From an uncultured Pseudobdellovibrionaceae bacterium (GTDB lineage Bacteria; Bdellovibrionota; FAC87; UBA2466): a stretch of 64,000 nucleotides of DNA. The DNA is taken from the NCBI GenBank assembly GCA_964603655.1, contig CAZRVZ010000045.1, positions 790 to 64,789 on the forward strand, in the 5' to 3' direction. The notes below the pieces were generated by a model. The model was given only the letters and a program-made list of their open reading frames with translations. It was not told where the DNA came from and searched no databases. Both the position numbers and the translations under genes were made by a program. Below are positions 9,129 to 57,086 of the stretch, in pieces (positions within the stretch are counted from its first letter, which is position 1; each line of letters opens with the position of its first letter).

Positions 9129-10493
9129 CTACCTCAGCCCCAGCTCCTTCATTTTGAGCTGAAGCCCTTTGCGGCTCATGTTCAGGTGTCTCGCAGCATG
9201 GGTGACATTTCCGTCCGTTTTACCCAGCGCCAATTCAATAGCTTTGGTCTCCACTCGTCGGGTCACATCTCGAACCTGGTCCTTTAACGATGTGTGGGCC
9301 GTGTTTTGGCTCTCTAGAAACCGTTTGTCCTCAAATTCCAAAACCTCTTCCGGCAGTTCCTCCGCTACAATGTTTCCCGTTTCGTTAATGACCACCAACC
9401 TCTCGATGGTATTTTCGAGTTGGCGAATATTTCCAGGCCAAGGAAACTGGCATAACAGTTCGAGCGCCTCGGGCGTCACGGTACAACTCGAACGTTTGAG
9501 CTGACCCGCCATTTTTTTAACGAAAAACCCGACCAATTGAGGAATATCTTCTGGTCGTTCTCTGAGCGGGGGCAAATGCACCGGCACAACGTTGAGTCTG
9601 TAAAACAGATCTCCCCGAAAGCGACCGTCCCTTACATCGGCCTCCAGATCACGATTCGTGGCGGTCACCAACCTGACGTCGACCTTCAGTGTTCGTACGC
9701 CTCCCACACGCTCAAAGGACTTGTCCTGAAGCACCCTCAGGAGTTTTACCTGCATCTCAACTGGCATTTCGCCTATTTCGTCCAAAAAAAGCGTCCCGCC
9801 GTCGGCAAGTTCAAAGCGGCCAGGTTTCGTCGCAACCGCCCCGGTGAACGCTCCCCTTTCATGGCCAAACAACTCGCTTTCCATGAGCCCGGGTGGAATC
9901 GCGGCACAATTTATTTTAATGAATGGCCCCGATGCGCGATTACTCTTGTCGTGTAACCCTTGAGCGATCAGCTCCTTGCCGGTGCCGCTCTCGCCCGAAA
10001 TAAGCACTGTAGACTCAGTGGCGGCTACCTTTTCAATCAAACTAAACACTTTCATCAACTTTTCATGTTTTCCGATCATGGGAACGGGTTCCGAGCCCTG
10101 GCAATTGCCCGAAGGGGAACTGTGAAATGCGTACGTCTTGACAGCTTTGGAAATCACCCTCACCAGCTCACTGCGATCAAACGGTTTGGTCAGGTAATCA
10201 AACGCTCCCTTTTTCATGGCATCCACTGCAGAATCAACCGTTCCGTGCGCGGTGAGAATGATAAACGGAATCGGGAGTCGTTCTCCCACCACCCACCTAA
10301 GTAATGACAAACCATCTTCCCGGTCGAGCTTCAAGTCAGATAGCACTACCTGAATAGATTCGCGCCGCAGTGACTCGCGGGCCTCGGCAACCGACTCGGC
10401 AGTCGTTACTTCGAATCCCTCGAATTGAAGCATTCGACTTAAAATAGTTCGAATGTTGTCTTCATCATCAACAATCAATATTCTCGTCGCCAT
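9129..10493 (-). CDS. sigma-54-dependent response regulator (NtrC family)
   Basis: Receiver domain (ILIVDDEDNIR...DLKLD). AAA+ domain with GESGTGKELIAQ Walker A and an ESELFGHERGAF (GAFTGA-type) motif. C-terminal Fis-type HTH. Confidence 0.85.
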   Translation of the reverse strand: MATRILIVDDEDNIRTILSRMLQFEGFEVTTAESVAEARESLRRESIQVVLSDLKLDREDGLSLLRWVVGERLPIPFIILTAHGTVDSAVDAMKKGAFDYLTKPFDRSELVRVISKAVKTYAFHSSPSGNCQGSEPVPMIGKHEKLMKVFSLIEKVAATESTVLISGESGTGKELIAQGLHDKSNRASGPFIKINCAAIPPGLMESELFGHERGAFTGAVATKPGRFELADGGTLFLDEIGEMPVEMQVKLLRVLQDKSFERVGGVRTLKVDVRLVTATNRDLEADVRDGRFRGDLFYRLNVVPVHLPPLRERPEDIPQLVGFFVKKMAGQLKRSSCTVTPEALELLCQFPWPGNIRQLENTIERLVVINETGNIVAEELPEEVLEFEDKRFLESQNTAHTSLKDQVRDVTRRVETKAIELALGKTDGNVTHAARHLNMSRKGLQLKMKELGLR

Positions 10494-39800: not shown

Positions 39801-40605
39801 GGCGAAGTTGTTAGGGTCTTTCGAACGTGCCATGCAGTTCAACCGGCTAAGGACAGTTCGTTTCTTTCGGGGCTGGAGGGCTACAAGCGCCGCACCATGG
39901 GTAAAGTCACTCGCGAGTTCAGGCACCAGGCTGCCCGCATTGCGCTTCGGATTAAGAGTTTTCGACATCACAAAACGATCAGGCCAAACCGCCCGTGACT
40001 TTTTCTTTTACCCCTTTCACCGTCTGGGGTTGACCGCACCCTTCGGCTCCAACTGGCGACTGCTTTCTCAATTGAATCCGGGATTATCTCGTACAAAGCG
40101 GGTTTCGATTCGACTCTGGCATTCGGTGGAGGACGGATCTCATATCATCGGTAATCTGCCACTCAGTCCCATAGGCCTACAATTTGGATCGGGTACCGCA
40201 GGGCTGTATCTGCAAGGTTATACTCTCTACGAACTCGGCAACTGGGGCTTTCAGACGTGGAGGGCCTACCAAGCCGCCGCCCGAGAGCTGGTCGTTGCAC
40301 GACTGCACGAAACGCTCCACTCAGAGCAGCCCAATTCTGAGTATATCGATCTTATCGATGCGGTTTACTCGGGCTCACTCACGGTCGAGGAGGCGGCTCG
40401 AGTAATCGAAACCAGCAGAAGTTTTGGGTTTGAAGAGGCGTTGACCGATGTGGTGAAGTCAAATGGCGCCATTGAAGCTCGAAACTCACTAGATTCCGCC
40501 AGAAAGGCTCTAGAATCACAACCAAAGTCGCCCGATCCAATTCACGAATATGCAAAGGCTCGTGCGCTCACACAGATGAGAAAAATCCTCGACCAAATCC
40601 ACTAG
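36871..40605 (+). CDS. large secreted hypothetical protein (1244 aa) with bilobed hydrophobic segment
   Basis: Signal peptide MYRNPIISMFIFVWVLFFWALPSLAADS. No recognisable catalytic domain. Hydrophobic pair LALSLSLIPEVGPAAAFIPGVIAVGITA near aa 870. Isolated HETLH near the C-terminus. Confidence 0.6.
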   Translation: MYRNPIISMFIFVWVLFFWALPSLAADSPVAEQIARMESQVAELQRRMPVTESERKTITGLAETGITQSANLQAQLVKEWDGFLIRLRVPDNERTEFNKLFSSDAADSGHLAAFPGTITLLRAHVLQGNQAPMQMGLELMVAGLRMTHYRLVCFHALQSATASPPIPLADFDKLLLSHYSQLALLFSLYPEFPEILMGALRNKTNQLDFSKLIPLLNIFSTGPPMTTLPAEFAGPGKFSATKLANLLGIGEGTLKGVLNAVATAEITTQELEHYHLTHYPQSAKQEVLEHLAVVLRNVPGLRECVNLTKSFSDSQSKPTSYSDFEGAPCDFKAYEGALRRYVGFYRANQGTTLLPTLEDFFKTSADNFRTQSEMRDALGSHILTDATDDFKKQWPAIEDRIFQNPDTIERWKTTDALTLTRDLKDVLSNSGIQIQEGLDINYSENLNQAEHLVSNLKNMDTNARTSAGEIVSIDSQTPCETFLRKDRSDNRVIQTVRQAESYPSAEESSHGFARLVRLFEVKLSNLATIQNPETVHVTLAGLLGQTIRAQLLTNYVQTQLLLGARLNRDLKLPRSPFIQLMENRYGYLSAEAIMAQAADVGATVIGDPFRKDFRTKLLSAANQIQKLDALITRLNTRAEAARMAPPGLSKILNIPPEFTGETDKSQASQMNQALIDLAGYVRWDFVERHSPGKTIHALRKINSATRLSIDQFKEQIDWYSGIENGRVTRPPRYTDFIGREELDILQKHPVLQGMLINHVDAIMDGPRDYAVWTRDLLISRYPMLTHVDASSGRKTDLWRNYRDQDFDKTLTSHLTMIQKTLTLFLAETDLDTFFNSAIHNGALLDYVLRRHPDQKLASCTEQRRVEAIRLRNERIVTGLSSLALSLSLIPEVGPAAAFIPGVIAVGITASENSKARMAAAQSHAYQIASLAQRSDSDRALDPVYQRKLEDQYLVAQVEHVLSIVGLASAGTIRFSRMAKLLGSFERAMQFNRLRTVRFFRGWRATSAAPWVKSLASSGTRLPALRFGLRVFDITKRSGQTARDFFFYPFHRLGLTAPFGSNWRLLSQLNPGLSRTKRVSIRLWHSVEDGSHIIGNLPLSPIGLQFGSGTAGLYLQGYTLYELGNWGFQTWRAYQAAARELVVARLHETLHSEQPNSEYIDLIDAVYSGSLTVEEAARVIETSRSFGFEEALTDVVKSNGAIEARNSLDSARKALESQPKSPDPIHEYAKARALTQMRKILDQIH

Positions 40606-40639: not shown

Positions 40640-41716
40640 ATGAAACGATACCGTCTAGTCTTCCTGGTATTACCTCTCTTATTAGTCCAGTGCAGGTCCA
40701 CACCAACGGCGATCCCGAAGGACCGAGAAGTAACGATCCTTTTTCAGTCAAACCGTTATGGGAACCTCGAAACCTGCGACTGCCATACAAACCCATTTGG
40801 GGGAATCGATCGCGAACACAACGCCACCCAAGACATCAGAAAACGCACTCCGAACATTCTGATGCTGGACTCCGGAAATCTGTTCGTTCCATCGGACCGC
40901 GGAGCGCCGCTCGAGTATTATCAAAAACGCGCCAAACGCCTCGCTCCCATTTTTTTCGAGTTAGGACTCGATGTTTTTGCCCCGGGGCCGAACGATCTGC
41001 TACTGGGAGCAACTGGTTTAAAGGAATTATCAGCCTCGAACTCATTTCGCTGGGTCGCCACAAACATCCGCACAGCGGATGGCTCAGAACCATTCCCTCT
41101 AATCTTAACCTTAGAAAGAGCCGGAATCCGGTTTGCCATAATATCTGCATCCCCCACGTCCGTTAGCACCGACTGGAAGATCCTGGACCCCCTCCAAACC
41201 CTGGAAAAAATGATCCCCGAGGCGGTAAAGGCGTCCGACTTTGTGATACTGCTTTCGCAGCTCGGCAACCCTATCGATATCCAGATAGCCGAACGCTTTC
41301 CCCAGATACAACTCATCGTCGGTTCCGACTCCATCCTGTCAACGGATCGACCCCAATGGTTTGCAGGCCACACACTTATCGTTGACCCCGATCTCAATGG
41401 CTATCTTCTGGGAAAACTGGCCTTAAAACTAAAATTACCGATAAAAGGGCTGTATTCTCCGGTCGATCTCGAGATCAACGAATCACTCCTAAAGGAATAT
41501 CAAGAACGGGCGTCTGCAAAAGATGGAAAACGTTACAAGGACTACGCTGACAAATTAAAATCGCAGAGCCAGCTAAACATCCCCGAACCAGGAAGTATTT
41601 ACGACTTCGAGCTCATTAAGCTCGATGAAGCGCGATTTGGGCTCCCGAAGAATCGATTCACTCAGCACATTTTAGACATGAAGGCGTGGGTTCGAAAGGC
41701 AGCGCTCAGGAAATAG
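40640..41716 (+). CDS. lipoprotein, degenerate 5'-nucleotidase/metallophosphoesterase-like
   Basis: Lipobox LLLVQC. GGIDREHNATQDIRKRTPNILMLDSGNLF aligns to the UshA-type N-terminal domain. The NDHH metal site is replaced by SNRYGN, so the protein is likely non-catalytic. Confidence 0.4.
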   Translation: MKRYRLVFLVLPLLLVQCRSTPTAIPKDREVTILFQSNRYGNLETCDCHTNPFGGIDREHNATQDIRKRTPNILMLDSGNLFVPSDRGAPLEYYQKRAKRLAPIFFELGLDVFAPGPNDLLLGATGLKELSASNSFRWVATNIRTADGSEPFPLILTLERAGIRFAIISASPTSVSTDWKILDPLQTLEKMIPEAVKASDFVILLSQLGNPIDIQIAERFPQIQLIVGSDSILSTDRPQWFAGHTLIVDPDLNGYLLGKLALKLKLPIKGLYSPVDLEINESLLKEYQERASAKDGKRYKDYADKLKSQSQLNIPEPGSIYDFELIKLDEARFGLPKNRFTQHILDMKAWVRKAALRK

Positions 41717-42861: not shown

Positions 42862-45800
42862 TTGATTCGCGTGCTTTGCACCTATCTGAGCGTCTTTTTG
42901 GCGATGCCTCCAAGCGTCTGGGCCGAACCATTCGATCAGATGACGCAGAAGGCACACATTGCGCAGTTGGAGAGCAAAGCGCCCAGCTGGAACGACGAAC
43001 GCCTCAAGGTATATCAGGCATTTCTGCTCGCATCCTGGAAGCTATCGGCTCTTTTGAGAGACCCACGCCTGGGAGCGATTGCGCTCATCCGGGAATCCGA
43101 AGATCGCGTCCTATTGTCAGCCTACAAAAATTGCCCAAGCCCGTGGAAAGAGGCGCCCGAATCATCTGAGATAAATTCAACCGTCACATCCCTCATTACA
43201 AATGTTCAAACGGCTCTGAATGCCCTATTCGAAAATCATGTTCTAGAAATTGGGTCCGTAGAGATCGAAACGGCTCCGGAAGGTCCACTCACGACACCGA
43301 CCGTGGAGTCGGATTTAAACGGAGCCATCTGCATTCCAGCCACTTTGATTTCTCATTCCTCAACTCACGATTCGCTGGACTCGCTTATCGCCTCAACCGA
43401 ATCAGCAATCCAGAGTGTTCAGAGGCCAATACACACACTGCTCCTGTCTAAAGTTACTCATGGTGGCATCGTAACCAATTTGGAAGTCCGTCGCTGGATA
43501 TCCTGGCTTGTGGGACTGCGGGAACTCTCGGCGCACACGATACATTTGCAGCCCAATTTGCCATCCAACGGTGGCGTTCAGGCGGCTCGTTTTTCAAAAA
43601 AGGTGGGGGACAAACTTTCCCTCGCGTATCGATCGGCAAAAAACACGCTGCTCACGCTGGGTGCTGCTAAAAATGACTTACCTCGATTTGAACCGTGTGT
43701 CGGTGAAAATCAAACGTCCGATTTCTTGTGCCTAATCGTGCCACCGCCTTCCGCCTTAGAGCAGGCTCGTGACAGGATCTTTCACCAGGCTCGGGAAAGG
43801 GCATACGACCACGGCAAAGGACTGGAGGCCATGCGTAGGTATAGCCTCATTATGAAGGGCGTTCCGGAACGCGCAGTCATCAGCCTTGCGCTCGGAAATG
43901 AAAACCCGGAGCTCAAACTTCCGGCATGCATGGGTTCGTCCGATGGGGCACTCATGCAGGATGTCTACCGCGAAAGCATTCAAACGGCCGCTAAATCGAG
44001 AGCAACCAATCAATTCCTCCAAGCGCTCGACCGAGTCAGCGCAAAGTATCGCGATAATTCCCTAGCACCACCAATCCCCAAAACGGACGAGATTTACACT
44101 GAAGGGCACACAATCGCGCTGTCCTTATTTATGACGGCTTTACAAAACCAACGTGAGGCTTCGGGTAGAGTGGCGAGCCATCTCGATACCTACAACTTTC
44201 GCGATTTTTTTCACAGCCAGCGGTTCTTAGATCAATTTCCCGACCATCTGAGTGGCAAACTAAAACTCACCCTCGCCTTTGTGAATGATGAGCTTTCTGA
44301 ACTAGCACCAGAACGGAGAACGGCCTTTCTCACTGGGCACATAACTGACACGATCCGTTATGTGCTGCACGACTCCCTGCTTAATTTTATTTTGGTAGTT
44401 GCAAGCGACCTCGGCATCGATGAGCAAGCAATAGCTGCAGAGTGGGAGCGCACGTTTGGTGCCCAATGGCAGTCCATTCTGGAGGATCCGCTGCTTCGGG
44501 CCGATATCTCTCAAATGGCGGAGACCGTGACCGCCCACATTAATACTAGTACGACGGCCCAACCGACCAACACGTTAGAGTGGTCGAATCAGAATCTTAG
44601 GACCTATGTGGACGCCCTTTCCGAGCAAGCGGTGCGGGCGGCCCACGCCGATGAAACCTACCGGTTCATGGAGAGTTTGTCTGAGTGGAAAAATGGCGGG
44701 GAGTCGGTCCTTTCCGGACCGCAGACCTATTATTGGAACCGCAGCGGCATTCACTTTTCACCGGTAGAGCTCAAACCCGAGCGCCCCAGCGATTATCGTC
44801 ACCTAAAGGAGCCCCTTAAATCCTTGGCCGAGGCTCACCGTAAAGCGCTGATCGACCGCCTTCAGTCGCAGGGATTTAACAATGAATTTGTACGGGCCCG
44901 ATTCGCTCTGCCCACGACGGATGCGCTAGCCGATCGTATCCTGGCCTATTTTGACCAGCTCGTCGCAGCGGACCCCAAGAAGTTTGAGGCCGACAGAATG
45001 CAGCAGAGGCAACAGGCATTTCAGCCATTACTAACCTGGCTCAACTCACCCCACGCGCGGGCTCAGTATGATGCCGCTGCCGGGCGGCTCTCTACCGAGA
45101 TTTTGGAGGCCGATTTGCGTCCATTCCTGGAGCAGGTTCCGAGCAGAGAATCGGCGCAATTCACAGCTTGGGAAGCTCAACTAAAGGCGGTTTTAAAGAC
45201 GATGTCGGACACCAAGACCTTTCGAACCCCTCCCGATACAGAAACCATTCTTAAGGTGAACAGTCGGTCCGACAACCGACTCCGCGAGTCGATTTCCAAT
45301 CTGCTCCGGGAAGTGACAGAACGAGGCTATTTTTCGGACCTGGAAACTGGGCTCCAAAAGTGCCTAAACGAACCCGAGAAATGCACGAGTCTACTAAAAT
45401 CAGTGCAGACTATTTTAACCAATCCCGCCCTAGAGCAATTGTACGAATGGCGGGTGATATCCCATTCGCTCAATCACGGTATTAATTTTCTGAATTACTT
45501 CGGGGCTGATGGAGACGTTTATGCCCCCCCACCCGTTGCGTCGCCTGTGCCAGAACTCGTGATATCGCTACGCGCAAAACTGAACGACATTTGGTTCGGT
45601 TTTCCTGGCTCGCCACCGAAGCATCCATCGGAGCATCCTTTGGGTCTGGCCAAGGAAGTTGATGCACTTTTAGTCGCCCTTTCCAAATCAGCACACGTGA
45701 ACCGGACTGGGGAATTGGATGGCTTTCACCAAAGTCTACTGGCGGACTTCCAACCGACAATTTCCAAAACCATTTCCGAAATGCACGCATTTCATCGTTG

Positions 45801-48800
45801 GCACGGTCATATTAAATCTTTGCTTCCGATGCTGACCGTTCCTGTCGATCGATTAACTCCGGCACTTTGGGAACAGGCAAGAACACTTATCCTAAACGAG
45901 CTTTCATACCTGCAGGGCGTTCGATTGCCGTTTTTAAACGCCCCCTCGGATTTGGACTCGTCACGAGCGCTGCTTCTCGATTTCTCGACCTATCGTAGTC
46001 GTCTTAATCATCTAGCCCGTATCGTGCTCAATCAGGGAACCGATCCGGCCGAGATTATTCACCAGGCCGAGGACGCACTCAGAGGTCTTCGCGCCATTAC
46101 CAAACCCACCGAGATGGTTCAACGCAGGATACGAATTCTGGGATCCCAGTTATCGGACGCCAAAAAGGACTTGTCAGCGTATTCAGAACTCCGGGGACTC
46201 GTTCGTCACTATATCCCCGCTCTCGCCGAGTCCAAGCAGGCTCTAACAATGGATATGGGCTCGCTCGGGCTCACCGAACGTTGGAATGCCTACTTCGAGG
46301 ATCAACTCCTCGACAAAAATGCTCGCGTCACGCTCAAGGATCTCAATTCATTGATCGCCAAATCGCAGTTCAATCAGCCAGTGGAACCACTTGACCCTCT
46401 GAATAAATCGACTATCGAAACCATTCTCAAGGATTCCATCAGTTATTTTACAAAGCTTCAGGCAGACCCGCTCACCGAGTCTTTTTTTCACCGTGAAGCC
46501 ATTCGTCATCGCATCCAAGGCCTCCCCGATTACACTTTAAGCCACGTACCTGGTAATATCGCTGGGCCTGCACTTTTTATGGCCGGGCTCAAGGTCGTCC
46601 ACGCGCGACTCATGCCGTATCTGATGCCTCGCGGATCGACGAATGAGGAGCTTTATCAGAAATTCGTTCGCGCCTCGGTTTCGACAGGGTCAGCGACTCA
46701 GTTAGATAATCTGATCGCCATCCTGCCCAGCCCCCGAGAGGTAACGACTTCGTTACTGTCTGAGGCGCAAGAAATCTTACGCGCTCTTAACGACAAAAAT
46801 GAATCGGCACAAACCAACTTCAGGGCATTTGCTCGCTCGCTCACCGATCTGAGTGCTTCGCGGCTGAGTACTCCGGAGCTGAGTACTCCGGAGCTGAGTG
46901 CTCCGGAGCTGAGTACTTCGGGGTTTGCTCCGTTCCTGGATTCTGAAGGAACCGAGGTTTCCATCAGCTCGACCGGACCCCACTCGGAGTTGGCGTTTCC
47001 TAAGGGTATAGATACTGAACTGTCGTTTCTTAATCGGGTCATTTCAAACCTATCAGTGAGTCATCGTTCGTCGCTACTGAGTCGGGCGGGGGTGGAAACT
47101 CCAGACACCAAATCTGCTGCAGAGCTACTCAATCGACTCAGTCCAAACGACAGGTCCCGCGTATACCGACACCTCTTGACCGAGGTGGAACGCAGTATTT
47201 CAACCCACGCGAGCATTTCTACAAACCCGGTTGCCAAGGCGCTATTTCCGCAGGGGGACACGCAAGAGACACTCAGCCCGACCTGGAACGCAGATTTGGA
47301 GCGGGCCATAGCCTTCTATGAAAAAAAGTCATCCCTACTACGCAAAGGGCAAACCCCAGCGTTGACTCGACTCATCGCCTTGACCCTTTTTGAGTACCTT
47401 GCACCCATTGGCTTTCGCTTCTCGGAAAAACAACTGGTCCAGAATGCTAAGATTCCAATCGATGTTAGTCGCGATCAATTGAGTCAAGCGCCGACTGCTG
47501 TTTTAAATCATTTTATTCAGGATGTCCGTTACCGCTACTATCAGGAGGTCGCTAGCAAGTCGGGGTTTTCAGCTTTTTCAAAAAGCACATCTATAGATGA
47601 TACGAATGACATTACGAAAATAGGTCCTGAAACCGCGACACTTCGTTTACTCTTGCGTCGCACTGTCATTCCACTGTCATATGCTCTCGCTGTTATTTCG
47701 GCTGAAAGTGAAGCTCTCTTACCCTTTTGGGCAAAGTGGAAACCCGGATCCACTAGTCACCTGGCGAAAGATTTTACAGAGTGGTTTTCTAAACTTGCAT
47801 CCTTAGATTCGCTCCGTTCGTCGTGGGGTCAACCCAATTCACGCGGCATTTCGAGTCGACACCCCAGTCTCTCGAGCTTTTCGAAGTCCAAAGAATATCG
47901 CCATCTCATGGTTCATCTGGTTTCGCTCGACGCCAATCAAACTGTTTCCGATGGGACGGGAAGTTATCCGGCACTTTTGGCTCAGCTCAATTGGAGCATC
48001 AACCGGAGTGGACGTACGTTCGATAGGACCGCGCGACCCATTCCAGCACCCCCGACCTTCAGAGAGCTAGACTACCTGGTCCGTCATCTCATCGACGTTA
48101 TTGGAATCGATCTCAAACGGTTCGATTCCTGGAGGCAGCTACTCGATACCCATCAAGGTGCTCCACCGGAATTGTGGGCACTGGCCTCGCGCAGTTTGCG
48201 CGATTCGATCTCGGAAGTTGGACAGGGTGGGTTTCTCGGCGTGAAGATTGCAGCACCACAGTCAGAAAGTCCACACACGCTTTTTGGAAACCATGGTTAT
48301 ATTCCGTATCCTGTCGTCAATGCGTCTGAGAGAGAACTATTTTGTGCCACTGACGACCTGACTGATTGGCTGGGTCGAGCCGAACAGCGGCTGCACCCCC
48401 CACACACCCAGTGGCTCAGATTTGAACGGGACGCATCCATATCCCAAAAGTCCCGGCTGGATAATGAAGTGCGGGGCCAAAAAGAGTACAGCCTCTATCA
48501 TGAGATTGCCCAGATAGAATCGGATGACATGGTGGGTCTTCAGGATACTATCGATGGAAACCCTACAATCAGAAATCGATTTCAATCGCGCTGGGATCGC
48601 TGGAATGCACTACCCTTTGGAACCGCAGTCTTGCCGGCAGTCGAACTCAACTCTTTGCAAGCACAGCTGGCCAAGGACAATATTTCCTCTAAGCAATCGG
48701 AACTCGAACGCATCTTCCGAGTACGCGAAGCATTGGTCGATTTTCGCCGCACGTTGAATGAAATCAATCTACAAGAAGGCGTCAACTGGTGGAGAGAGTC

Positions 48801-51800
48801 GCGCAATCTCTTCACGGGTGATCTCGAAAATCAATTGAATCTGGCGCTGGCGCAGTTTGGAAAACAGATCGCAACCGAAGGTTGGACCGACCGATTCCCC
48901 CGGTTCCCCCAGTTCCCAATGGCCGGTCGGAATTCAAAGGGAACCTTTGCCGAGCGCCGTCGAAGTAGTATCGGGAGCGCCATCTTTCACGCTTCGCGTG
49001 CGGTGCACGATACCTTGTATAAAGGTAGATCTCCGGAAGATACGGCTCGCGTTCGGAAGATTCTCGGCGTGATGGACACCCATTTCACGCGGTCGGTTGA
49101 AGTGGGGAGCGTTCGCAAAACTCTTGAAACCACGGCCAAGAATTTGGATGAAACCTTGGCTCGTCTTTGCCTGGCCGATTTTTCTGCCATTCATTCCAAT
49201 GATGACTTTAAACGCAGCAAAGATTCGATCCTCGCCTCCGGACTTCCATTCTTTGACAGTCACCAGCAACAACTTTTTACGGATTCTCAGATGCTTCCCA
49301 GCGGGTCACAGGAAACACACAATCGTCTCATCACCTTGTCACAGGAGATTTCCGATCGCGCAAAACTCATGAAAAACATCGAGTGGGGTTTTAACGCGCT
49401 GATGGTCGTTTCATTAGTAGCCCTTGTCGCTGGAAAGAGCTCACCTTCACTGTCCCACTGGGTTCTGGCAACGGGCGCAAGACGAACCACCGCTGCAGTC
49501 GCGGCCTCACTCGTTACGATCTTGTGGGTTGGCATCGAGGCGAATGGCTATGCCGAGGATTTCCACGTTGTCCCGCAGGATCTGCGCGATAAGCTCCACA
49601 TTCGCGACTCCCAATTCAGCGGGAACAACACCTTCCTTTCACCACAAAATGCTGCAGCCCTTTTTGATGCGATCCGCACCAACGACCAAGCCCAAGTAAG
49701 TGGGTTCCGATGGACATTCCGAGTTCTTGCCGCACTCGCCGGATTTCAACTTTTGCGTCCTTGGCTGAAAGCAGCACTCGGTGGTCCGGGTTATCTGCAG
49801 AAAGTAATCAGGCATGATTTCCGTGGCATTGCCAATTCCCGGCTGCGCCATGACCTACTCACATTAGGACAGGGCAAATTTCCCAACGCGATCGCTCACC
49901 TCGAACAGTTGAGTCCGATGGAGGCGCAAGAAAAGGTGGTAGGTGCGTACCTTGCGGAACTAGGTGCCACCCGAACAGGTTCGGGAGTCTACCGCATCTC
50001 TAACACCACCGCGCGCCGACTCTCGGAAGATGCCACTCGGCAGCTCAAGCAATTATCCAAACAATTGGGAATAGACCCTAATGATTTTGGGGCCCTCTCG
50101 GATGAATCCTTAAATTTACTGTCTCCTAAAAGGGTGATGGAGGAACGCGCAAAGTCTCTGCCGCGACTGAGAGATCTTCGTTATTGGGCTGGTCGTTTTT
50201 CAGGCAACACGACCTTTCACCAGGATGAACTAATGGATGGGGTTCTCGCCATCGTCGGCGTCCAGTCAAGTATCACGTCTCGCTATGTACCGCTCTGGCT
50301 TCGCTTTTTCGGGGTGGAATACCCGACTCCCACATCACTTTCACTCTCGAAACTTCAGCGCCTCAACCAGGCGCAGCTGGATATTTTGAGTTATTACCAC
50401 CCTCGCGTCAGATACGCCCTGGCTCAACTATCGGAGGCCTCTGGCCGAACTATTCAGCCCTGGGAAATTTTTGTGCCCTCCAAGATGGCGTCTTGGACAG
50501 CGCCCAAACCCATGCGCATGCTCCTTGGCTCTGTAAAAACTCGCGCCGTTTCGGCCTCCAATGCGTTTTTGGACAGAGCCCCGTATCTTTATGAATCCCC
50601 CGAATCACGGGCTCTGGTGTCACGACAACTCCAGCGGGAGGTATTTGAAACGGCTCTCCTGGAGACGGGAGAGTCCCCGATAGCCTCTTCACTACCGTCT
50701 GAAATCCTGGATCAGGCAGCGCGCTTACGATTGGAGTATGGACGTACTCGTTTTAATTTATTAGTCGAAGAGTATTTGATTGCCGAGGGGCTCTCGCTGC
50801 CATCACACGAAAAGACTCAGCTCGAGCTACTGGGCCAACTGGTGGGTTGGGATGCATCCGCTAGAGATCTGATCCTTATCCATATTCGGTCCAAAAACCC
50901 AAGGCAGTCGGTAACCGAAACTGACATCCAGGAAGTCATCGTCGCAATGATAGACCCCAAACACCCCCGGTTTGCCGAACTGAATCGAGTGCTCCCAAAA
51001 ACCGAATCGGAGTTTCACCCTGGTACGGATGCTCCTTTTACAGAAACCGATTTGATTGATGGCCCGCTCGATCTTTCCGAGCACGCGCTAAAGCTCCGCA
51101 CTATTTTAAAAGATTATCATCCCGACACGCGCCTGCTTCAGGCCATCGCGCGATCGGACTACTCCCAAATGGCGTCAGCCCTCACGGCAAGGAGAGTTGC
51201 TCAGTTTACATCTCAAACCATGGGGACACCGGACGCAGCGGCAGATACAATGGCGGAACCAGGTGGTGAGGGCTCGCCGCGAGAACCAGAGTCACCAGTC
51301 CGACCAAGCGTCCGCCCTGCACCCAAACCGAAAATGGATCTGGCATCGATTCCCCCGCCAAGAAACGAAGCCGAGATACTTAAAGAGCGTCTGGCTGATT
51401 TGGAAAAAGGAATCCTCCCAACCGATGTGCGCGAACCGCATCGTTTGATTTCAAAGCACAATCTATTTCAAGTAGTCGATAGAACTCTACTGGTCGCACA
51501 CGCACCCAGTCACAAGAACCACATCGTAATCAACCTTTTCGCTGAGGGTGTTAGACCAGAAGGAATCGATTCGGCGCTGGGGGAATTGATAACTCACGGT
51601 CTGGCTACCGACGAAATCATCGCGGCCTATCGATACGCGTCTGATAGTCTACGCACTTTGGAGATAATAGCCCAAGCTACGGAAGCTGGAGTGGTTCAGC
51701 CATCCGAGAAGACACAACTCTTCGAGTGGTGTGTAAAGATGTACCTCGGACACCCGGAAAAATTGGCCGCGCGCGCGATGACCCCCAGCGAGTCGGCTTC

Positions 51801-53409
51801 AATACTTGGCCTTTCCGCTTTGCGTGCCCCTCAATACTCCGCCCAGACCGTGAACTTGGCCGCGGAGAAAGCAGCGGGTCGCCAAATAAATCAATCTTTT
51901 ACCCGACAGGCCAGCCGGGCCTTCGAGCTTACGCGCGACGGACAGATTCAGTCGCTACGGGATATCTCGGATGCCCTTCATTTTCCATTAGAATATTTCG
52001 ACCGCCCCGAGCTCGTGACCGGTGTACTCCACAGAATTGTTTCCTACAACGCTCGGGCGGAGCGCACATTAGCTAAACTTTATCAGGGTGCGTTCCACGA
52101 CTCGGTCGAAGATGCCCGTGTGGCACTGGTACTAGCTGATTCAAAAACTGCCAACATTACAGCCCGAATTACCGACCGGATTCGAACCTTACGTGAAGAG
52201 ATTTCGGGACGAATAGAGTTGTCCGAAAATCGGGCCATCCACGAAGAGGCTATCCGACGCCTTGAGAGAGCTCAGCACATTCTGGAATCCCCAGAAGGGA
52301 CTTTTCCGGCAAAGTACATTGCACCTAAAGTGTTTCCAGACGTTCCTCGCTCGCTCACAATATCCGAATCCTCTGCCGAAACTACTGAGTTGTTTAATAC
52401 CCATTGGGAAAACCTCATGAAAACACTGCCTGCCGAGAGACAGGCAGAACTGGGGCCACTCCTCGGTGCACTTCCAACCCAGAGTCTCAGTGGCGCTCGG
52501 CGCAATTTGTGGAAAGCGCTCGGGGCACAGCAGTTCGCTTTCGGCTCGCCGGAGCACCACCTTCAACGCAAAGCGCTTCGGCTTATTCATTCCCACTTTC
52601 TTGTCGAACAGGCAAAGCAGACCGGCTGCGTAGTAACCGATGCAGAGGTGACTTCCCTCTTTGATTCGCTGGTCCGCCACTATGTTGAGAGGGATTCCAT
52701 CCATTTTGAATTGTCAGTCGATGAAGCTGAGATTCTGATCTCGGCCAGTACCCGCTTGCGCACATCCCAGCTGGAATTTGGCAAAAATCATGAGCGCCTC
52801 GAGGAATTTTGGAAGGCACTCTCACTAGAGGGGCATTTAATAGGAAAGGGCGAAGGAAATATTTCCCAAGCACTGCACGACCAGCTCGCCCTTGCGGCGG
52901 AAACGGTCAAGGCAACACTGTATCCCGGCAAAGAGCTGTCTATTCGCCATTTCGGTTATTATGATTTGGAAACGCTCTTTCTGAGTAGCTATTCTCGTTT
53001 GCCGCTCGAGGTAGTGATCGAACCGGAGATTTTAGCCAATCGGAAACTAGTTTATCTGTTCCTGGACGGACCGGGAGTAAAGCGAGCATCGGAATTAAAG
53101 ACGAAAGGTGATTGGGTCATCGAACTCTTCACCGATGGCGCTCCATTTTCCGAAAAATTAGCCGAGACCGCCGAGTATCAGCTCGCTCAATACGAAATCT
53201 GGCGACGGCTTAAGTGGAATGCAGATCTTCCCCCGGGGCCGGCCAGAGACCGAGGTCAACAGATCCTGGAGCACGCGCTAGGCCGATTTGGCGCGTCTCC
53301 AAAGGTGGAACCCTCACTTCCAAAACTCGAGCGGCCACGACGAATTATCGTCCCCTCGGAGAATACACCCAAACCTCAGCGGCTGATTTTACCGAAGGAT
53401 TTTCAATAA
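42862..53409 (+). CDS. giant secreted hypothetical protein (3515 aa)
   Basis: Uninterrupted 10.5-kb ORF. Signal peptide MIRVLCTYLSVFLAMPPSVWA. Predominantly helical composition. Internal TM-hairpin-like pair near aa 2170-2230. A 15-bp repeat encodes STPELSTPELSAPELS. Preceded by a 247-bp AT-rich promoter region. Confidence 0.7.
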   Translation: MIRVLCTYLSVFLAMPPSVWAEPFDQMTQKAHIAQLESKAPSWNDERLKVYQAFLLASWKLSALLRDPRLGAIALIRESEDRVLLSAYKNCPSPWKEAPESSEINSTVTSLITNVQTALNALFENHVLEIGSVEIETAPEGPLTTPTVESDLNGAICIPATLISHSSTHDSLDSLIASTESAIQSVQRPIHTLLLSKVTHGGIVTNLEVRRWISWLVGLRELSAHTIHLQPNLPSNGGVQAARFSKKVGDKLSLAYRSAKNTLLTLGAAKNDLPRFEPCVGENQTSDFLCLIVPPPSALEQARDRIFHQARERAYDHGKGLEAMRRYSLIMKGVPERAVISLALGNENPELKLPACMGSSDGALMQDVYRESIQTAAKSRATNQFLQALDRVSAKYRDNSLAPPIPKTDEIYTEGHTIALSLFMTALQNQREASGRVASHLDTYNFRDFFHSQRFLDQFPDHLSGKLKLTLAFVNDELSELAPERRTAFLTGHITDTIRYVLHDSLLNFILVVASDLGIDEQAIAAEWERTFGAQWQSILEDPLLRADISQMAETVTAHINTSTTAQPTNTLEWSNQNLRTYVDALSEQAVRAAHADETYRFMESLSEWKNGGESVLSGPQTYYWNRSGIHFSPVELKPERPSDYRHLKEPLKSLAEAHRKALIDRLQSQGFNNEFVRARFALPTTDALADRILAYFDQLVAADPKKFEADRMQQRQQAFQPLLTWLNSPHARAQYDAAAGRLSTEILEADLRPFLEQVPSRESAQFTAWEAQLKAVLKTMSDTKTFRTPPDTETILKVNSRSDNRLRESISNLLREVTERGYFSDLETGLQKCLNEPEKCTSLLKSVQTILTNPALEQLYEWRVISHSLNHGINFLNYFGADGDVYAPPPVASPVPELVISLRAKLNDIWFGFPGSPPKHPSEHPLGLAKEVDALLVALSKSAHVNRTGELDGFHQSLLADFQPTISKTISEMHAFHRWHGHIKSLLPMLTVPVDRLTPALWEQARTLILNELSYLQGVRLPFLNAPSDLDSSRALLLDFSTYRSRLNHLARIVLNQGTDPAEIIHQAEDALRGLRAITKPTEMVQRRIRILGSQLSDAKKDLSAYSELRGLVRHYIPALAESKQALTMDMGSLGLTERWNAYFEDQLLDKNARVTLKDLNSLIAKSQFNQPVEPLDPLNKSTIETILKDSISYFTKLQADPLTESFFHREAIRHRIQGLPDYTLSHVPGNIAGPALFMAGLKVVHARLMPYLMPRGSTNEELYQKFVRASVSTGSATQLDNLIAILPSPREVTTSLLSEAQEILRALNDKNESAQTNFRAFARSLTDLSASRLSTPELSTPELSAPELSTSGFAPFLDSEGTEVSISSTGPHSELAFPKGIDTELSFLNRVISNLSVSHRSSLLSRAGVETPDTKSAAELLNRLSPNDRSRVYRHLLTEVERSISTHASISTNPVAKALFPQGDTQETLSPTWNADLERAIAFYEKKSSLLRKGQTPALTRLIALTLFEYLAPIGFRFSEKQLVQNAKIPIDVSRDQLSQAPTAVLNHFIQDVRYRYYQEVASKSGFSAFSKSTSIDDTNDITKIGPETATLRLLLRRTVIPLSYALAVISAESEALLPFWAKWKPGSTSHLAKDFTEWFSKLASLDSLRSSWGQPNSRGISSRHPSLSSFSKSKEYRHLMVHLVSLDANQTVSDGTGSYPALLAQLNWSINRSGRTFDRTARPIPAPPTFRELDYLVRHLIDVIGIDLKRFDSWRQLLDTHQGAPPELWALASRSLRDSISEVGQGGFLGVKIAAPQSESPHTLFGNHGYIPYPVVNASERELFCATDDLTDWLGRAEQRLHPPHTQWLRFERDASISQKSRLDNEVRGQKEYSLYHEIAQIESDDMVGLQDTIDGNPTIRNRFQSRWDRWNALPFGTAVLPAVELNSLQAQLAKDNISSKQSELERIFRVREALVDFRRTLNEINLQEGVNWWRESRNLFTGDLENQLNLALAQFGKQIATEGWTDRFPRFPQFPMAGRNSKGTFAERRRSSIGSAIFHASRAVHDTLYKGRSPEDTARVRKILGVMDTHFTRSVEVGSVRKTLETTAKNLDETLARLCLADFSAIHSNDDFKRSKDSILASGLPFFDSHQQQLFTDSQMLPSGSQETHNRLITLSQEISDRAKLMKNIEWGFNALMVVSLVALVAGKSSPSLSHWVLATGARRTTAAVAASLVTILWVGIEANGYAEDFHVVPQDLRDKLHIRDSQFSGNNTFLSPQNAAALFDAIRTNDQAQVSGFRWTFRVLAALAGFQLLRPWLKAALGGPGYLQKVIRHDFRGIANSRLRHDLLTLGQGKFPNAIAHLEQLSPMEAQEKVVGAYLAELGATRTGSGVYRISNTTARRLSEDATRQLKQLSKQLGIDPNDFGALSDESLNLLSPKRVMEERAKSLPRLRDLRYWAGRFSGNTTFHQDELMDGVLAIVGVQSSITSRYVPLWLRFFGVEYPTPTSLSLSKLQRLNQAQLDILSYYHPRVRYALAQLSEASGRTIQPWEIFVPSKMASWTAPKPMRMLLGSVKTRAVSASNAFLDRAPYLYESPESRALVSRQLQREVFETALLETGESPIASSLPSEILDQAARLRLEYGRTRFNLLVEEYLIAEGLSLPSHEKTQLELLGQLVGWDASARDLILIHIRSKNPRQSVTETDIQEVIVAMIDPKHPRFAELNRVLPKTESEFHPGTDAPFTETDLIDGPLDLSEHALKLRTILKDYHPDTRLLQAIARSDYSQMASALTARRVAQFTSQTMGTPDAAADTMAEPGGEGSPREPESPVRPSVRPAPKPKMDLASIPPPRNEAEILKERLADLEKGILPTDVREPHRLISKHNLFQVVDRTLLVAHAPSHKNHIVINLFAEGVRPEGIDSALGELITHGLATDEIIAAYRYASDSLRTLEIIAQATEAGVVQPSEKTQLFEWCVKMYLGHPEKLAARAMTPSESASILGLSALRAPQYSAQTVNLAAEKAAGRQINQSFTRQASRAFELTRDGQIQSLRDISDALHFPLEYFDRPELVTGVLHRIVSYNARAERTLAKLYQGAFHDSVEDARVALVLADSKTANITARITDRIRTLREEISGRIELSENRAIHEEAIRRLERAQHILESPEGTFPAKYIAPKVFPDVPRSLTISESSAETTELFNTHWENLMKTLPAERQAELGPLLGALPTQSLSGARRNLWKALGAQQFAFGSPEHHLQRKALRLIHSHFLVEQAKQTGCVVTDAEVTSLFDSLVRHYVERDSIHFELSVDEAEILISASTRLRTSQLEFGKNHERLEEFWKALSLEGHLIGKGEGNISQALHDQLALAAETVKATLYPGKELSIRHFGYYDLETLFLSSYSRLPLEVVIEPEILANRKLVYLFLDGPGVKRASELKTKGDWVIELFTDGAPFSEKLAETAEYQLAQYEIWRRLKWNADLPPGPARDRGQQILEHALGRFGASPKVEPSLPKLERPRRIIVPSENTPKPQRLILPKDFQ
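46864..46920. repeat. 15-bp tandem repeat (about 3.7 copies, gagctgagtactccg) inside the giant gene
   Basis: Direct repeats seen in the sequence. They encode (STPEL)n. Confidence 0.75.
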
Positions 53410-53717
53410 TCCAACAGCCTCTGTTGAATGCCGAAACACCTGGATGCGAATACAGCACCGCCAACTATTTGATAGGACGCCGATTATTAAATAATTGTTA
53501 GTGCGCGATCTAGCATACGACAGATCGAGTGCCGTCCACTACCGTAGACTAGGCAGTAGAATTACTTGGCACTGCCATTGCAGTAATAAAATATTGAGAA
53601 TTTATTTCGGTGCTCTAAAGCATTTTTGAGCTGAGCGACACTTGAAGCAGACCGTATGTGACACTGTTCCTGAGTAGCGTGCGTAGCACCGGATTTAGTT
53701 TGGTCCCCTATCCCCCA

Positions 53718-53805
53718 TGAATTGGTGAATTGGTACCAGGTACCTTTCAGGACTGCATTATTTAACACAGTCCTGAAAGGTACCTGGTACCAATTCACCA
53801 ATTCA
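53718..53805. repeat. perfect 38-bp inverted repeat (12-nt loop), hairpin/cruciform and likely bidirectional terminator
   Basis: tgaattggtgaattggtaccaggtacctttcaggactg ...cattatttaaca... cagtcctgaaaggtacctggtaccaattcaccaattca. It abuts the ppsR stop. A T-run (cttttt) follows 14 nt downstream on the plus strand. Confidence 0.8.
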
Positions 53806-53810
53806 CTAAT

Positions 53811-54641
53811 TCACCTCACTTTTTCGGGGAAACTATTGCGAATTACCTTCTCGACTTCGGCGGCAGTTTCCTCAAGTGCTTTTCCGGTAACATCGAACAC
53901 AGGCCAACGGCGATTCTTCTTAAATACCTCTTTGCAATATTCGATCTCTTCCACTACATGGTCCAAATTCGCGTACTTGGCCTCTGGGTCCTCGCCCATC
54001 TTTACCAAGCGCTCTCGGCGAATGCGCACCAGCGTATTGGCGTCGATGATAAGGCCGACCACCTTTTTTTGATCGATCTGGCCTAACGCCTCGGGTAGCG
54101 GAATTCCGTTCACTAACGGAACATTGGCGACCTTCCACCCTTTGTAGGACAGGTAGATGGAAAGTGGAGTCTTACTCGTCCGGGAAAGCCCTACCAAAAC
54201 AATATCGGCGGCCTGAAGGTTATCGGGATATCTGCCATCGTCGTGTTTTACGGTGAACTCGATGGCCTCAATTCGTCTGAAATAGTACTCGTTCACCTGA
54301 TGAAAAAGCCCCGGCTGAGAGTAGGGATCCTTTGTGAGATAGCGGCCGAGCACCTCAAGCACCGGCCCCAGAAGATCGACGCTGGGAACTCCTGATTGAG
54401 AGGACAATCCCGCGATAAATGTTCTTAAGGAATCGGAAACCACCGTATACACGATGATCGCCTTGGTCTGGTGAGCCTCTTCAAAAATGCTGGCAACCTG
54501 AGCCTCGGTTCGGATGTTCTTGTACCTGGCAATTTTTAGGCCTTCGCGCACATACTGCACCAGAGCCGCCTTAATCATCTGATCGGCTGTTTCGCCGGTA
54601 CCGTCGGACAGAACAAATACCGTAAGTCCTTCACTCATCAT
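53811..54641 (-). CDS. ppsR: PEP synthetase/pyruvate-phosphate dikinase regulatory protein (PSRP, DUF299)
   Basis: FVLSDGTGETA N-terminus and the P-loop-like GLSRTSKTPLS, typical of the kinase/pyrophosphorylase YdiA family. Confidence 0.8.
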   Translation of the reverse strand: MMSEGLTVFVLSDGTGETADQMIKAALVQYVREGLKIARYKNIRTEAQVASIFEEAHQTKAIIVYTVVSDSLRTFIAGLSSQSGVPSVDLLGPVLEVLGRYLTKDPYSQPGLFHQVNEYYFRRIEAIEFTVKHDDGRYPDNLQAADIVLVGLSRTSKTPLSIYLSYKGWKVANVPLVNGIPLPEALGQIDQKKVVGLIIDANTLVRIRRERLVKMGEDPEAKYANLDHVVEEIEYCKEVFKKNRRWPVFDVTGKALEETAAEVEKVIRNSFPEKVR

Positions 54642-55600
54642 TCACACTCACCATTCACACTCATACTGGCATACTCATACTGGAGCCTCTCGCCCCTGGC
54701 AAAACGAATCGCCTCGCTTATACAAATTGCAGACATTCTCGAACGCGCGCTCAAAGTGGCCGACCCAATATGCGGAAGACACAAAGCGTTTGGCATCTGA
54801 GTCAGCGCTCTTTCAATATGCGGTTCAAACTCATACACATCCAGTCCAGCATAGAAAGTAGGCATCTTTTTCAAATGCGCTGCCAGCGCTCGCTCGTCGA
54901 CAATAGGACCGCGCGCCGCATTAATCAAGATCGCCCGGGGATTCATAATTCTGAGCTCCTTGGCGCCAATATAATGATGGGTCGACGCGTTGAGGGGGCA
55001 GTGAATCGATACAATATCACTTTCTTTCAATAGTTTTTCCTTGGAAATGTGCCGATAACGACACCGCTGCTTAGGGCCCGTGTAGAAAACTTCGGCACCA
55101 AATGCCTCAAGCCGTCTGGCAACTGCCCTTCCGATACGCCCTAAACCCACTAGCCCGACAGTCGCCCCTTGAAGTTCTACACCTAAGAAATCATTCGGAC
55201 CGAATCCCACGAACTTTCTATCGCCTGTTAGCCGCATCGCCGCCGGCAATCGACGAGCACACGCCAGAATCAACGTCAGGGTCAAATCGGCCGTCGCATC
55301 GGTCAGGACATTGGGGGTGTACGTGAGTCGGATTCCACGCCGCTTAAGCAGCGCGACGTCAATGTGGTCCAAACCAACGGAAAACGAAAAAATTGCTTTG
55401 AGTCGATTGGCCGATGCGATGGCCTTCGAATCAATTCGATCGGTAACCGTAACAACAGCTGTATCGGCGGTGTTTAAGAGCGCCCTGAGCTCGAGAGATG
55501 AAAGCGGCCGACCCTTCTCCACCTCGACAACCTTGTCATAATAGGGTGCCAACTGAATTATGGGCTCCGCCGGGAATTTTCGCGATAACACGATTCGCAT
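54638..55600 (-). CDS. D-isomer-specific 2-hydroxyacid dehydrogenase (glyoxylate/hydroxypyruvate reductase-like)
   Basis: NAD-binding GLVGLGRIGRAVARRLEAFG. Catalytic R...E...H pattern. Confidence 0.8.
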   Translation of the reverse strand: MRIVLSRKFPAEPIIQLAPYYDKVVEVEKGRPLSSLELRALLNTADTAVVTVTDRIDSKAIASANRLKAIFSFSVGLDHIDVALLKRRGIRLTYTPNVLTDATADLTLTLILACARRLPAAMRLTGDRKFVGFGPNDFLGVELQGATVGLVGLGRIGRAVARRLEAFGAEVFYTGPKQRCRYRHISKEKLLKESDIVSIHCPLNASTHHYIGAKELRIMNPRAILINAARGPIVDERALAAHLKKMPTFYAGLDVYEFEPHIERALTQMPNALCLPHIGSATLSARSRMSAICISEAIRFARGERLQYEYASMSVNGECE

Positions 55601-56868: not shown

Positions 56869-56871
56869 TAA

Positions 56872-57053
56872 GGGCTCGCCCAAAAATAACTTTACATTTT
56901 GGCGCGCAGATTGGGGGCAGATTTGGACGAGCCGATTGAACGAAACGGGAAGCATACCTCAGGCGGTATGTTAAGCGTTTCGTGAAAGAGGGTCGTTCAA
57001 AGATGGCTCCAAGATGCGATGTCCAAAATGTAAAGTTATTCTTGGGCTAGCCC
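56872..57053. repeat. 182-bp imperfect palindromic element with 31-bp terminal inverted repeats (MITE-like or structured sRNA locus)
   Basis: gggctcgcccaaaaataactttacattttgg (56872-56902) pairs with its reverse complement at 57023-57053, with 2 mismatches. Nested inner IRs acgaaacg/cgtttcgt and catacc/ggtatg share one symmetry centre at 56961.5. Confidence 0.6.
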
Positions 57054-57086
57054 TAAGGCAATGTTTCAATCACGCTATAAAACAAT

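Follow-up and report, generated by a model that had tools for sequence, protein, structure and literature searches.

A long perfect inverted repeat at the 3' end of ppsR in an uncultured Pseudobdellovibrionaceae bacterium

We analysed a stretch of 64,000 nucleotides (hereafter, the window) of contig CAZRVZ010000045.1, from the assembly GCA_964603655.1 of an uncultured Pseudobdellovibrionaceae bacterium, and focused on the long inverted repeat located at positions 53718-53805. The repeat lies between the 3' ends of two genes that converge on it. On the minus strand, a ppsR-like gene (53811-54641) encodes a kinase/pyrophosphorylase of 276 amino acids (aa), as given by the list of open reading frames (ORFs), the Pfam family PF03618, the homologues and their alignment. 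On the plus strand, a giant ORF of at least 3515 aa (42862-53409), in which no Pfam domain was found, is convergent with ppsR and has a syntenic homologue in a relative (locus L122, described below). The right arm of the repeat is separated from the stop codon of ppsR by 5 nt, instead of the 6 nt of the original prediction, which had been made from the sequence alone. The stop codon of the giant ORF ends at 53409, which is 308 nt away and matches the predicted distance of about 310 nt.

The two arms of the repeat (53718-53755 and 53768-53805) are complementary at 38 of 38 positions around a loop of 12 nt, both when the sequence is read and when a repeat finder is used. Hence, the perfect 38-bp stem that had been proposed is present, and it far exceeds the length of normal terminator stems (about 5-15 bp), as had also been pointed out. 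The left arm, TGAATTGGTGAATTGGTACCAGGTACCTTTCAGGACTG, is delimited by the sequence, the repeat finder, the count of 24-mers and the predicted fold, and the right arm by these same sources and by the ends of two contigs (L125 and L126, see below). The A+T-rich loop, CATTATTTAACA (53756-53767), is seen in the sequence and in the RNA and DNA folds. A version of the repeat of 43 nt, with 95% complementarity, was also given by the repeat finder and corresponds to the same arms extended into the loop. No strand is assigned to the repeat or to its parts. Each arm is laid out as TGAATTGG-TGAATTGG-TACC-A-GGTACC-TTTCAGGACTG, i.e., two octamers and a 13-nt palindrome of the type GGTACCWGGTACC. In the left arm this palindrome is GGTACCAGGTACC (53732-53744; called P13), made of two KpnI-type sites around CCAGG, and its partner GGTACCTGGTACC is found at 53779-53791. 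The two 13-mers are thus built from the four GGTACC sites of the repeat, which are the embedded KpnI-like palindromes noticed at the outset. They are 34 nt apart in the element, and between them lie 22 further paired bases and the loop.

The outer part of the right arm belongs to an array of period 8 (CCAATTCA, CCAATTCA, CTAATTCA; 53790-53813), identified by the repeat finder and in the sequence. Its first two copies (53790-53805) are inside the arm, and their mirror image, two copies of TGAATTGG (53718-53733), is inside the left one. The third octamer, CTAATTCA (53806-53813), is imperfect, occurs outside the right arm only, and holds the stop codon of ppsR (TCA at 53811-53813 on the plus strand, read as TGA on the minus strand). 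The direct repeats of AATTCACC that had been described as flanking the element do exist, but most of the array is inside the arms and only the third copy, next to the right arm, is a flank. Read on the minus strand, the octamers place a TGA in each of the three frames over a span of 25 nt, beginning with the stop of ppsR. The symmetry of the element also produces mirrored ORFs, which start with (L/M)VNWYQVPFRT and had rightly been called artefacts, since they are reading-frame products of this symmetry. A search with the corresponding peptides (six frames, concatenated) against 5.8 billion proteins gave no match, with a low sensitivity as such ORFs are rarely called. The sequences around the element (...CCCCCA on one side, CTAATT... 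on the other) contain no direct repeat and, hence, no target-site duplication.

Several lines of evidence show that the repeat is not a product of chance or of assembly. A 24-mer taken from the arm is found in the window in the two arms only, for an expectation of 0.00 in shuffled sequences. The repeat folds at -75.3 kcal/mol as RNA (z = -12.8) and at -46.1 kcal/mol as DNA (z = -15), and among the 100-nt stretches of the window it has the lowest energy (-64.5 vs a mean of -22.2 +/- 6.3, the next best being at -47.1). A chance origin is excluded. Two Logan contigs, L125 (from the run ERR4904393) and L126 (from ERR3478687), encode a PpsR that is 100% identical to the one in the window, and both end with ...GTGAATTAG followed by 30 nt of the right arm. 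Logan assemblies are built with k = 31. As the first 31-mer that is wholly inside a perfect repeat is common to both arms, a unitig must stop after one base of the flank and 30 bases of the arm. The position of the break in both contigs matches this prediction, which places the outer boundary of the arm at its position in the window. The repeat is thus a real sequence. More generally, perfect repeats longer than the k-mers of the assembler break short-read assemblies at exactly such sites, as these two contigs illustrate.

The original prediction had suggested comparing orthologous regions downstream of ppsR, and we did so for seven further lineages. Their PpsR proteins share with that of the window 89% (L127), 88% (L122-124, from GCA_016196825.1, and L129-131), 86% (L128), 80% (L132/133), 77-78% (L134 and L135), and 76% identity (L137). 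Across these seven lineages, with PpsR 76-89% identical, we found neither the repeat, nor the 13-mer, nor the octamer array. Instead, four relatives (L122, L129, L132, and L137) share a common plan, in which the stop codon of ppsR is followed by two smaller hairpins and then by a box, TGGGGGRTAGGGGAC, that is almost invariant among them. Hairpin 1 has an invariant stem base (GCCTGG/CCAGGC). It forms a perfect stem of 15 bp in L129 and has a 17-nt arm with 82% complementarity in L132. In L122, its stem of about 17 pairs is interrupted, and the surrounding 120-nt stretch folds at -46.6 kcal/mol. The consensus fold of hairpin 1 in the relatives has an energy of -25.6 kcal/mol, and three of its pairs are kept via double changes. 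Hairpin 2 is either GCTCC-GAAAT-GGAGC or GCTCTTC-GAGA-GAAGAGC. The interval between the stop codon and the box is about 87 nt in L122 and 93 nt in the window, where it is filled exactly by the repeat. The C-terminus of PpsR also differs, being ...FPEKVR* in the window and ...PEK(V/L/F)G(S/A)* in the relatives.

Judging from these alignments, the repeat took the place of the two ancestral hairpins and of the last two ppsR codons, rather than being inserted into an intact site, and it arose after the split from the relatives whose PpsR is 88-89% identical. The perfection of the arms argues for a recent event. The Logan contigs L127 (3667-3696) and L128 (3844-3876) also end 30-33 nt past the stop codon of ppsR, and the tail of L127 aligns with an ordinary hairpin 1. 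These contig ends could correspond to strain variation or to more long repeats at the same spot. Another palindrome was observed in L132 (3829-3881), next to the adjacent convergent gene: a perfect inverted repeat of 21 bp with a loop of 11 nt, flanked by A and T runs, which looks like a textbook bidirectional terminator.

On the other side of the repeat, the plus strand carries a sigma-54-type -24/-12 promoter that points at it (TGGCACtgccaTTGCA, i.e., TGGCAC-N5-TTGCA; 53567-53582). The element was identified by its match to the consensus and by its conservation, and is the only exact match to the sigma-54 consensus in the window. The four relatives with hairpins have counterparts on the same strand (TGGCACtgaggTTGCA in L129, TGGCACcactgTTGCT in L132, TGGCATttccgTTGCA in L137, and TGGCACattgaGTGCA in L122), always located 130-151 nt upstream of the box and separated from it by a poorly conserved spacer. 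The region 53530-53600 had been singled out for its further short palindromes. These palindromes coincide with the conserved promoter and are not debris of repeat elements. The box itself is a C-rich sequence, GTCCCCTATCCCCCA (53703-53717, plus strand), that abuts the left arm in the window and is present in all four hairpin-bearing relatives. A third conserved block, of 31 nt (53495-53525, no strand assigned), is 93.5% identical to its counterpart in L122 and lies about 45-70 nt upstream of the promoter, which makes it a plausible candidate for an activator-binding site. Among the genes of the window are those for an NtrC-type sigma-54 activator and its kinase (9129-12633).

From these elements we infer a short non-coding transcript driven by sigma-54, which would span positions 53593-53805 of the plus strand, the start being estimated from the geometry of the promoter. 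In the predicted fold, a 5' stem-loop precedes the C-rich box, which is mostly unpaired, and the repeat forms the terminal 3' hairpin. If the prediction is correct, this layout is the usual one for a small regulatory RNA. Reading the sequences of the window and of the four relatives revealed no conserved ORF between the promoter and the hairpins. With Rfam 15, no family reached the gathering threshold in the repeat or in the transcript of the window and there was nothing in the relatives. The sub-threshold matches of the repeat were to generic models of microRNA precursors, the best with 46 bits for a gathering score of 99, which any long hairpin would be expected to give. Together, the promoter, the C-rich box and the hairpins found downstream of ppsR make a candidate small RNA, antisense-convergent to ppsR, in an uncultured clade resembling Deltaproteobacteria.

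With moderate confidence, we interpret the repeat as a 3'-end hairpin that the ppsR operon and the sigma-54 transcript have in common, placed between these two convergent units. It would serve both of them as a bidirectional terminator, as a barrier to read-through, and as a protector of RNA 3' ends. The first unit would be the operon formed on the minus strand by hflX, a 2-hydroxyacid dehydrogenase gene and ppsR, and the second the short non-coding transcript of the plus strand, starting from the sigma-54 promoter and with the C-rich box just before the hairpin. The same job would be done in the relatives by the two ordinary hairpins, whereas in the window a single perfect palindrome of 88 nt has taken the place of both, together with the last two codons of ppsR. 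The octamer array of the element supplies the new TGA stop. The palindrome may have originated from the insertion of a hairpin-type repeat element or from palindromisation by template switching. We infer this mode of origin, like the ends of the transcripts at the repeat.

A role as bidirectional terminator had been suggested from the start, and is supported by the sequence comparisons. As expected for an intrinsic terminator, the hairpin follows a stop codon shortly (5 nt). The site lies between ppsR, on the minus strand, and the giant ORF and sigma-54 promoter, on the plus strand, and is thus convergent. It is also the place where four relatives carry conserved hairpins. If this reading is correct, the locus shows how a perfect palindrome of much greater length can overwrite, in one lineage, a conserved terminator region while the neighbouring genes are kept. 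However, several observations weigh against it. There is no U-tract beside the stem on either strand. After the stem, the minus-strand RNA continues with UGGGGGAUAGGGG (the terminator test cites UGGGGGAUAGG), and the plus-strand RNA with CUAAUUCACCUCACUUUUU, where a run of five U starts only 15 nt later. The site is missing from the results of a scan for consensus terminators, whose hits in the region do not exceed chance. A stem of 38 bp with 45% G+C over its length and a loop of 12 nt is far from the compact and G+C-rich stem of a terminator. As RNA, it would be a good substrate of RNase III, so that it could destabilise the transcripts rather than protect them. The replacement of the hairpins could also have been a neutral or mildly harmful insertion. 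Finally, the consensus fold of five sequences, that of L137 being wrongly trimmed, was weak and gave no convincing conserved structure for the body of the proposed non-coding RNA.

Oversized and lineage-specific as it is, the hairpin belongs to a known kind of element, the intergenic palindromic hairpins of 3' ends. REP hairpins, including REP325, are combined and partly Rho-dependent terminators as well as stabilisers of mRNA (bioRxiv 10.64898/2026.03.23.713779). Bidirectional terminators between convergent genes are described as common in E. coli (Ju et al. 2019, as presented in bioRxiv 10.1101/2022.10.23.513370). According to that description, they are, as we propose for the repeat studied here, single structured elements between converging units that define both 3' ends and need not look canonical. 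They were, however, defined by the mapping of 3' ends, whereas the element of the window is known from its sequence and its hairpin is much longer. Another case of a duplex unusually long for a terminator is SPRITE, a pneumococcal repeat resembling Rho-independent terminators (Croucher et al. 2011, PMC3049150). SPRITE elements are strongly enriched between convergent genes, near the 3' ends of coding sequences, and are thought to have been co-opted as terminators (PMC3049150). They differ from the repeat by their stem (18 bp vs 38 bp), by their long U-rich tract, where the repeat has no adjacent one, and by their number (about 30 copies per genome, for a single copy as far as seen in our case).

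It is possible, although we consider it on the unlikely side, that the repeat is instead a non-autonomous mobile palindromic element, similar to REPIN or to miniature transposable elements with inverted repeats (MITEs), which landed in the terminator region of ppsR and deleted part of it. It would be selfish, and its effect on termination incidental. As to the origin of the palindrome, this explanation overlaps with the shared 3'-end hairpin that we favour. It is in line with the lack of the repeat in all the relatives with 76-89% identity in PpsR, with the perfect arms, which suggest a recent arrival, and with the stop codons present in all frames at the edge of the element. The site would also fit, since small repeats such as SPRITE gather between convergent genes near 3' ends (PMC3049150). 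In other genomes, moreover, the GGTACCWGGTACC pair is present in multiple copies.

There is a resemblance to REP and REPIN (Bertels and Rainey 2011, PMC3116915), and it is one of form only. By the definition given there, each arm of the repeat contains its own palindrome, GGTACCWGGTACC, and faces the other arm in inverted orientation across a spacer of 12 nt. Like the repeat, REPINs are extragenic, have two inverted palindrome-bearing halves that can form one long hairpin, and are found at the 3' ends of genes or between convergent genes, with proposed effects on read-through and on the stability of the upstream mRNA. Yet they occur in tens to hundreds of copies per genome along with a RAYT transposase, whereas a single copy of the repeat is seen in 64 kb and the ORFs scanned include no RAYT. 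Their arms are imperfect, whereas those of the repeat are perfect, and there is no sequence similarity. Regarding MITEs, the repeat does have terminal inverted repeats, its perfect 38-bp arms making up nearly the whole element, but it lacks a target-site duplication and there is no clean empty site in the relatives, where about 87 nt of ancestral sequence were replaced and not interrupted.

A comparison can also be made with the Correia repeat-enclosed elements of Neisseria. These have inverted repeats of about 26 bp and TA duplications, neither of which is seen in the window element. Like the repeat, they are short hairpin-forming insertions with long inverted repeats (PMC2649163; review by Delihas, PMC2229807). 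They alter the expression of adjacent genes, and their RNA is a substrate or a binding site of RNase III (PMC2649163; PMC2229807). However, their sequence is conserved across the family, their internal core contains a site for the integration host factor, and their copy number is high, none of which was seen in the element of the window.

Searches for further copies speak against mobility. The original prediction had noted that multiple dispersed copies would make the repeat a generic element, and no such copies were found in the window, GTDB genomes, viral contigs, plasmids, phages, or proteins. In the 64-kb window, which covers most of a contig of 65,163 nt, there is no second copy of the repeat, even with three mismatches, and the 13-mer does not occur outside the repeat, even with two mismatches. 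A 20-mer of the arm, searched in 185,579 GTDB representative genomes, has a single match, in an unrelated 31-nt hairpin of a metagenome-assembled genome (MAG) of Planctomycetia. This hairpin reads cGGTACCAGGTACC-TTTCA-GGTACCTGGTACCg and has the 13-mers in common with the repeat, the loop TTTCA being probably shared by chance. In viral contigs, plasmids, and phages we found either no copy or chance matches (E = 0.4), and there is no translated copy among the 5.8 billion proteins. Accordingly, neither multiple copies nor a parent insertion sequence, as known for MITEs, could be found in these datasets. No transposase, integrase, RAYT, or restriction-modification gene was detected among the ORFs of the window that were scanned against Pfam.

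The lineage has nevertheless another element of this sort 3 kb away, at 56871-57054, which counts in favour of mobility, as it implies that palindromic insertions have been acquired there. It is a second lineage-specific, rod-like hairpin with arms of 32 nt at 94%, flanked by TAA on both sides. The surrounding 231-nt stretch folds at -92.7 kcal/mol (z = -9.2). The element sits between a 134-aa ORF and hflX, two genes with no gap between them in the relatives, where they overlap or abut. In appearance it is MITE-like, it is single-copy in the window, and the Logan contig L125 starts inside it.

The pair of 13-mers is found much more widely than the repeat itself. A scan of metagenomes for GGTACCAGGTACC-N(5-35)-GGTACCTGGTACC gave at least 120 stretches, and the loci from the genome and metagenome scans form our comparison set (L001-L121). 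Among the matches listed, about 70 are true hairpins, mostly in contigs with 61-74% G+C. Also among these matches, certain flanks recur around the hairpins (AAATC...GATTT, GAAAC...GTTTC), their loops of 12 nt are related, and two or more of them are present in several contigs. Subfamilies can be told apart by their flanks, namely AAATC/GATTT, GAAAC/GTTTC, and CA/TG (e.g., L070 8576-8613, L046 2626-2663, and L007 8774-8810). An ORF of at least 150 codons ends between -40 and +12 nt from the stem for 41% of the hairpins among the matches listed, vs 12% of control positions, and often 0-10 nt away. T-rich tails follow 32% of the hairpins, vs 4%, in the same matches. In their own genomes, these hairpins look like REP- or SPRITE-like terminator repeats, and by analogy they count in favour of a 3'-end role for the repeat. 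The motif GGTACCWGGTACC, found in hairpins at gene ends in many metagenomic genomes, may be a REP-like family or a motif recognised by a protein.

The repeat resembles these hairpins in having the same pair of 13-nt palindromes, in A...T order, and in its position, as they usually start a few nt after a stop codon. It matches their operational class, GGTACCAGGTACC...GGTACCTGGTACC within 35 nt just after a stop, but lacks the short loop, the T-rich tail, and the several copies. The hairpins have a loop of 5-14 nt between the 13-mers, whereas the window has 22 further paired bases and the 12-nt loop. They often have A-run and T-run flanks and are multi-copy in some contigs, whereas the element of the window has octamer arrays outside the 13-mers, no T tail, and a single copy. 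They come mostly from genomes with 61-74% G+C, whereas the window belongs to a MAG resembling Deltaproteobacteria with 52% G+C. When the 121 loci were compared by BLAST with the element and with the entire window, no homology beyond the 13-mers was seen, and we found no paper containing either 13-mer in the searchable literature. Common descent of the repeat and these hairpins is a possibility. One may go further and propose that the repeat is the local case of an undescribed class of GGTACCWGGTACC 3'-end hairpins that crosses phyla, made of REPIN-like 'mobile terminators' or of protein-recognised elements. It would have taken over the terminator that ppsR shares with an unannotated small RNA, which would be sigma-54-dependent and have a C-rich seed, and would set the 3' ends and, via RNase III, the stability of both. 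We regard this broader proposal as unlikely.

Two other observations were made in the course of these scans. In the locus L102 (1039-1344), a GGTACCWGGTACC hairpin occurs three times in a tandem array with a period of 137 nt, its flanks being conserved. In contigs of low G+C content (L025 6804-6886, L023, L101, and L109), the 13-mer arises within long tandem arrays of heptamers, where (GGTACCA)n switches to (GGTACCT)n. These arrays are a different phenomenon from the hairpins.

A more doubtful explanation is that the repeat is a site of RNase III processing or retroregulation. Its duplex would be cleaved when transcribed from either side, thereby coupling the decay of the ppsR mRNA, or the maturation of the small transcript, to read-through. 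The long perfect duplex suits this idea, as does the resemblance of the repeat, always below threshold, to generic microRNA precursors and to nothing else in Rfam. Correia elements provide a precedent, since they bind RNase III and are cleaved or protected (PMC2649163), and the window encodes PNPase, which makes a control of decay from the 3' end plausible. However, the relatives use short hairpins, which are poor substrates of RNase III, so the ancestral function needed no long duplex.

Still less probable is a function at the level of DNA, either as two palindromic operators of 13 bp, 47 bp apart, for a dimeric protein, or as a cruciform or recombination hotspot, of which the original prediction had spoken. 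The near-perfect dyad GGTACCWGGTACC occurs twice, the stability of the hairpin as DNA is very high, and the reuse of the same 13-mer in many unrelated contigs could reflect a sequence-specific binding protein. Nothing, however, points specifically to a cruciform, a recombination site or a protein-binding element. The element is flanked by the 3' ends of genes, and the only nearby promoter is about 150 nt upstream of it. The window shows no regulon-like pattern, as there is no other 13-mer with up to two mismatches in 64 kb, and it contains no candidate gene for a binding protein, a recombinase, or a restriction-modification system. GGTACC is not avoided either, with 17 sites in the window (13 of them outside the repeat) for 7.1 +/- 2.8 expected. 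This over-representation led us to reject the avoidance of a restriction site, or a decoy for it. We also rejected an attC site (the repeat is too symmetric and there is no cassette array), a CRISPR repeat (there is a single copy), and a protelomerase target (the 12-nt centre is asymmetric and there is no such gene nearby).

An assembly artefact, i.e., a fold-back chimera or a false join, is very improbable: although the contig is assembled from a metagenome and perfect palindromes are a known class of artefacts, the flanks are syntenic with the relatives on both sides (ppsR on one and, on the other, the box and the promoter, both conserved), so that a fold-back chimera is excluded, the sequences beyond the arms differ and are not mirrored, and two assemblies from different runs share the right boundary and break where a true repeat predicts.

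The repeat had also been proposed to mark the boundary of a genomic island, which is not supported by the comparison with relatives. The last 839 aa of the giant ORF are 33% identical to the convergent giant gene of L122 (E = 5e-124) and are colinear with it to the final residue, and the synteny from fabF to ppsR is kept on the other side. The order fabF-rpiB-glyA-nusB-x-hflX-ppsR is common to the window and the relative, and the window is ordinary core chromosome, with nusA-infB, pnp, truB, PBP1, and glpX. Its G+C content is about 52%. The homologues of PpsR place it in an uncultured lineage whose named relatives are MAGs of 'Deltaproteobacteria' or 'Bdellovibrionales'.

Some minor observations concern the neighbouring genes. 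The C-terminus of the giant protein evolves fast, with 33% identity to L122 where PpsR is 88% identical, and there is no Pfam domain at all in the giant ORF (42862-53409) or in its neighbours (36871-40605 and 40640-41716). In L122, the giant gene is separated from the conserved intergenic blocks by an Lsa36-like gene (PF28316, 5246-6307) that is missing from the window, so an insertion or deletion of about 1.1 kb has occurred beside the 3' end of the giant gene. Finally, the 2-hydroxyacid dehydrogenase gene located between hflX and ppsR (54638-55600, minus strand) is present in the window, L125/126, L132, and L135, and absent from L122, L127, L128, L134, and L137, so that the content of the operon is variable.

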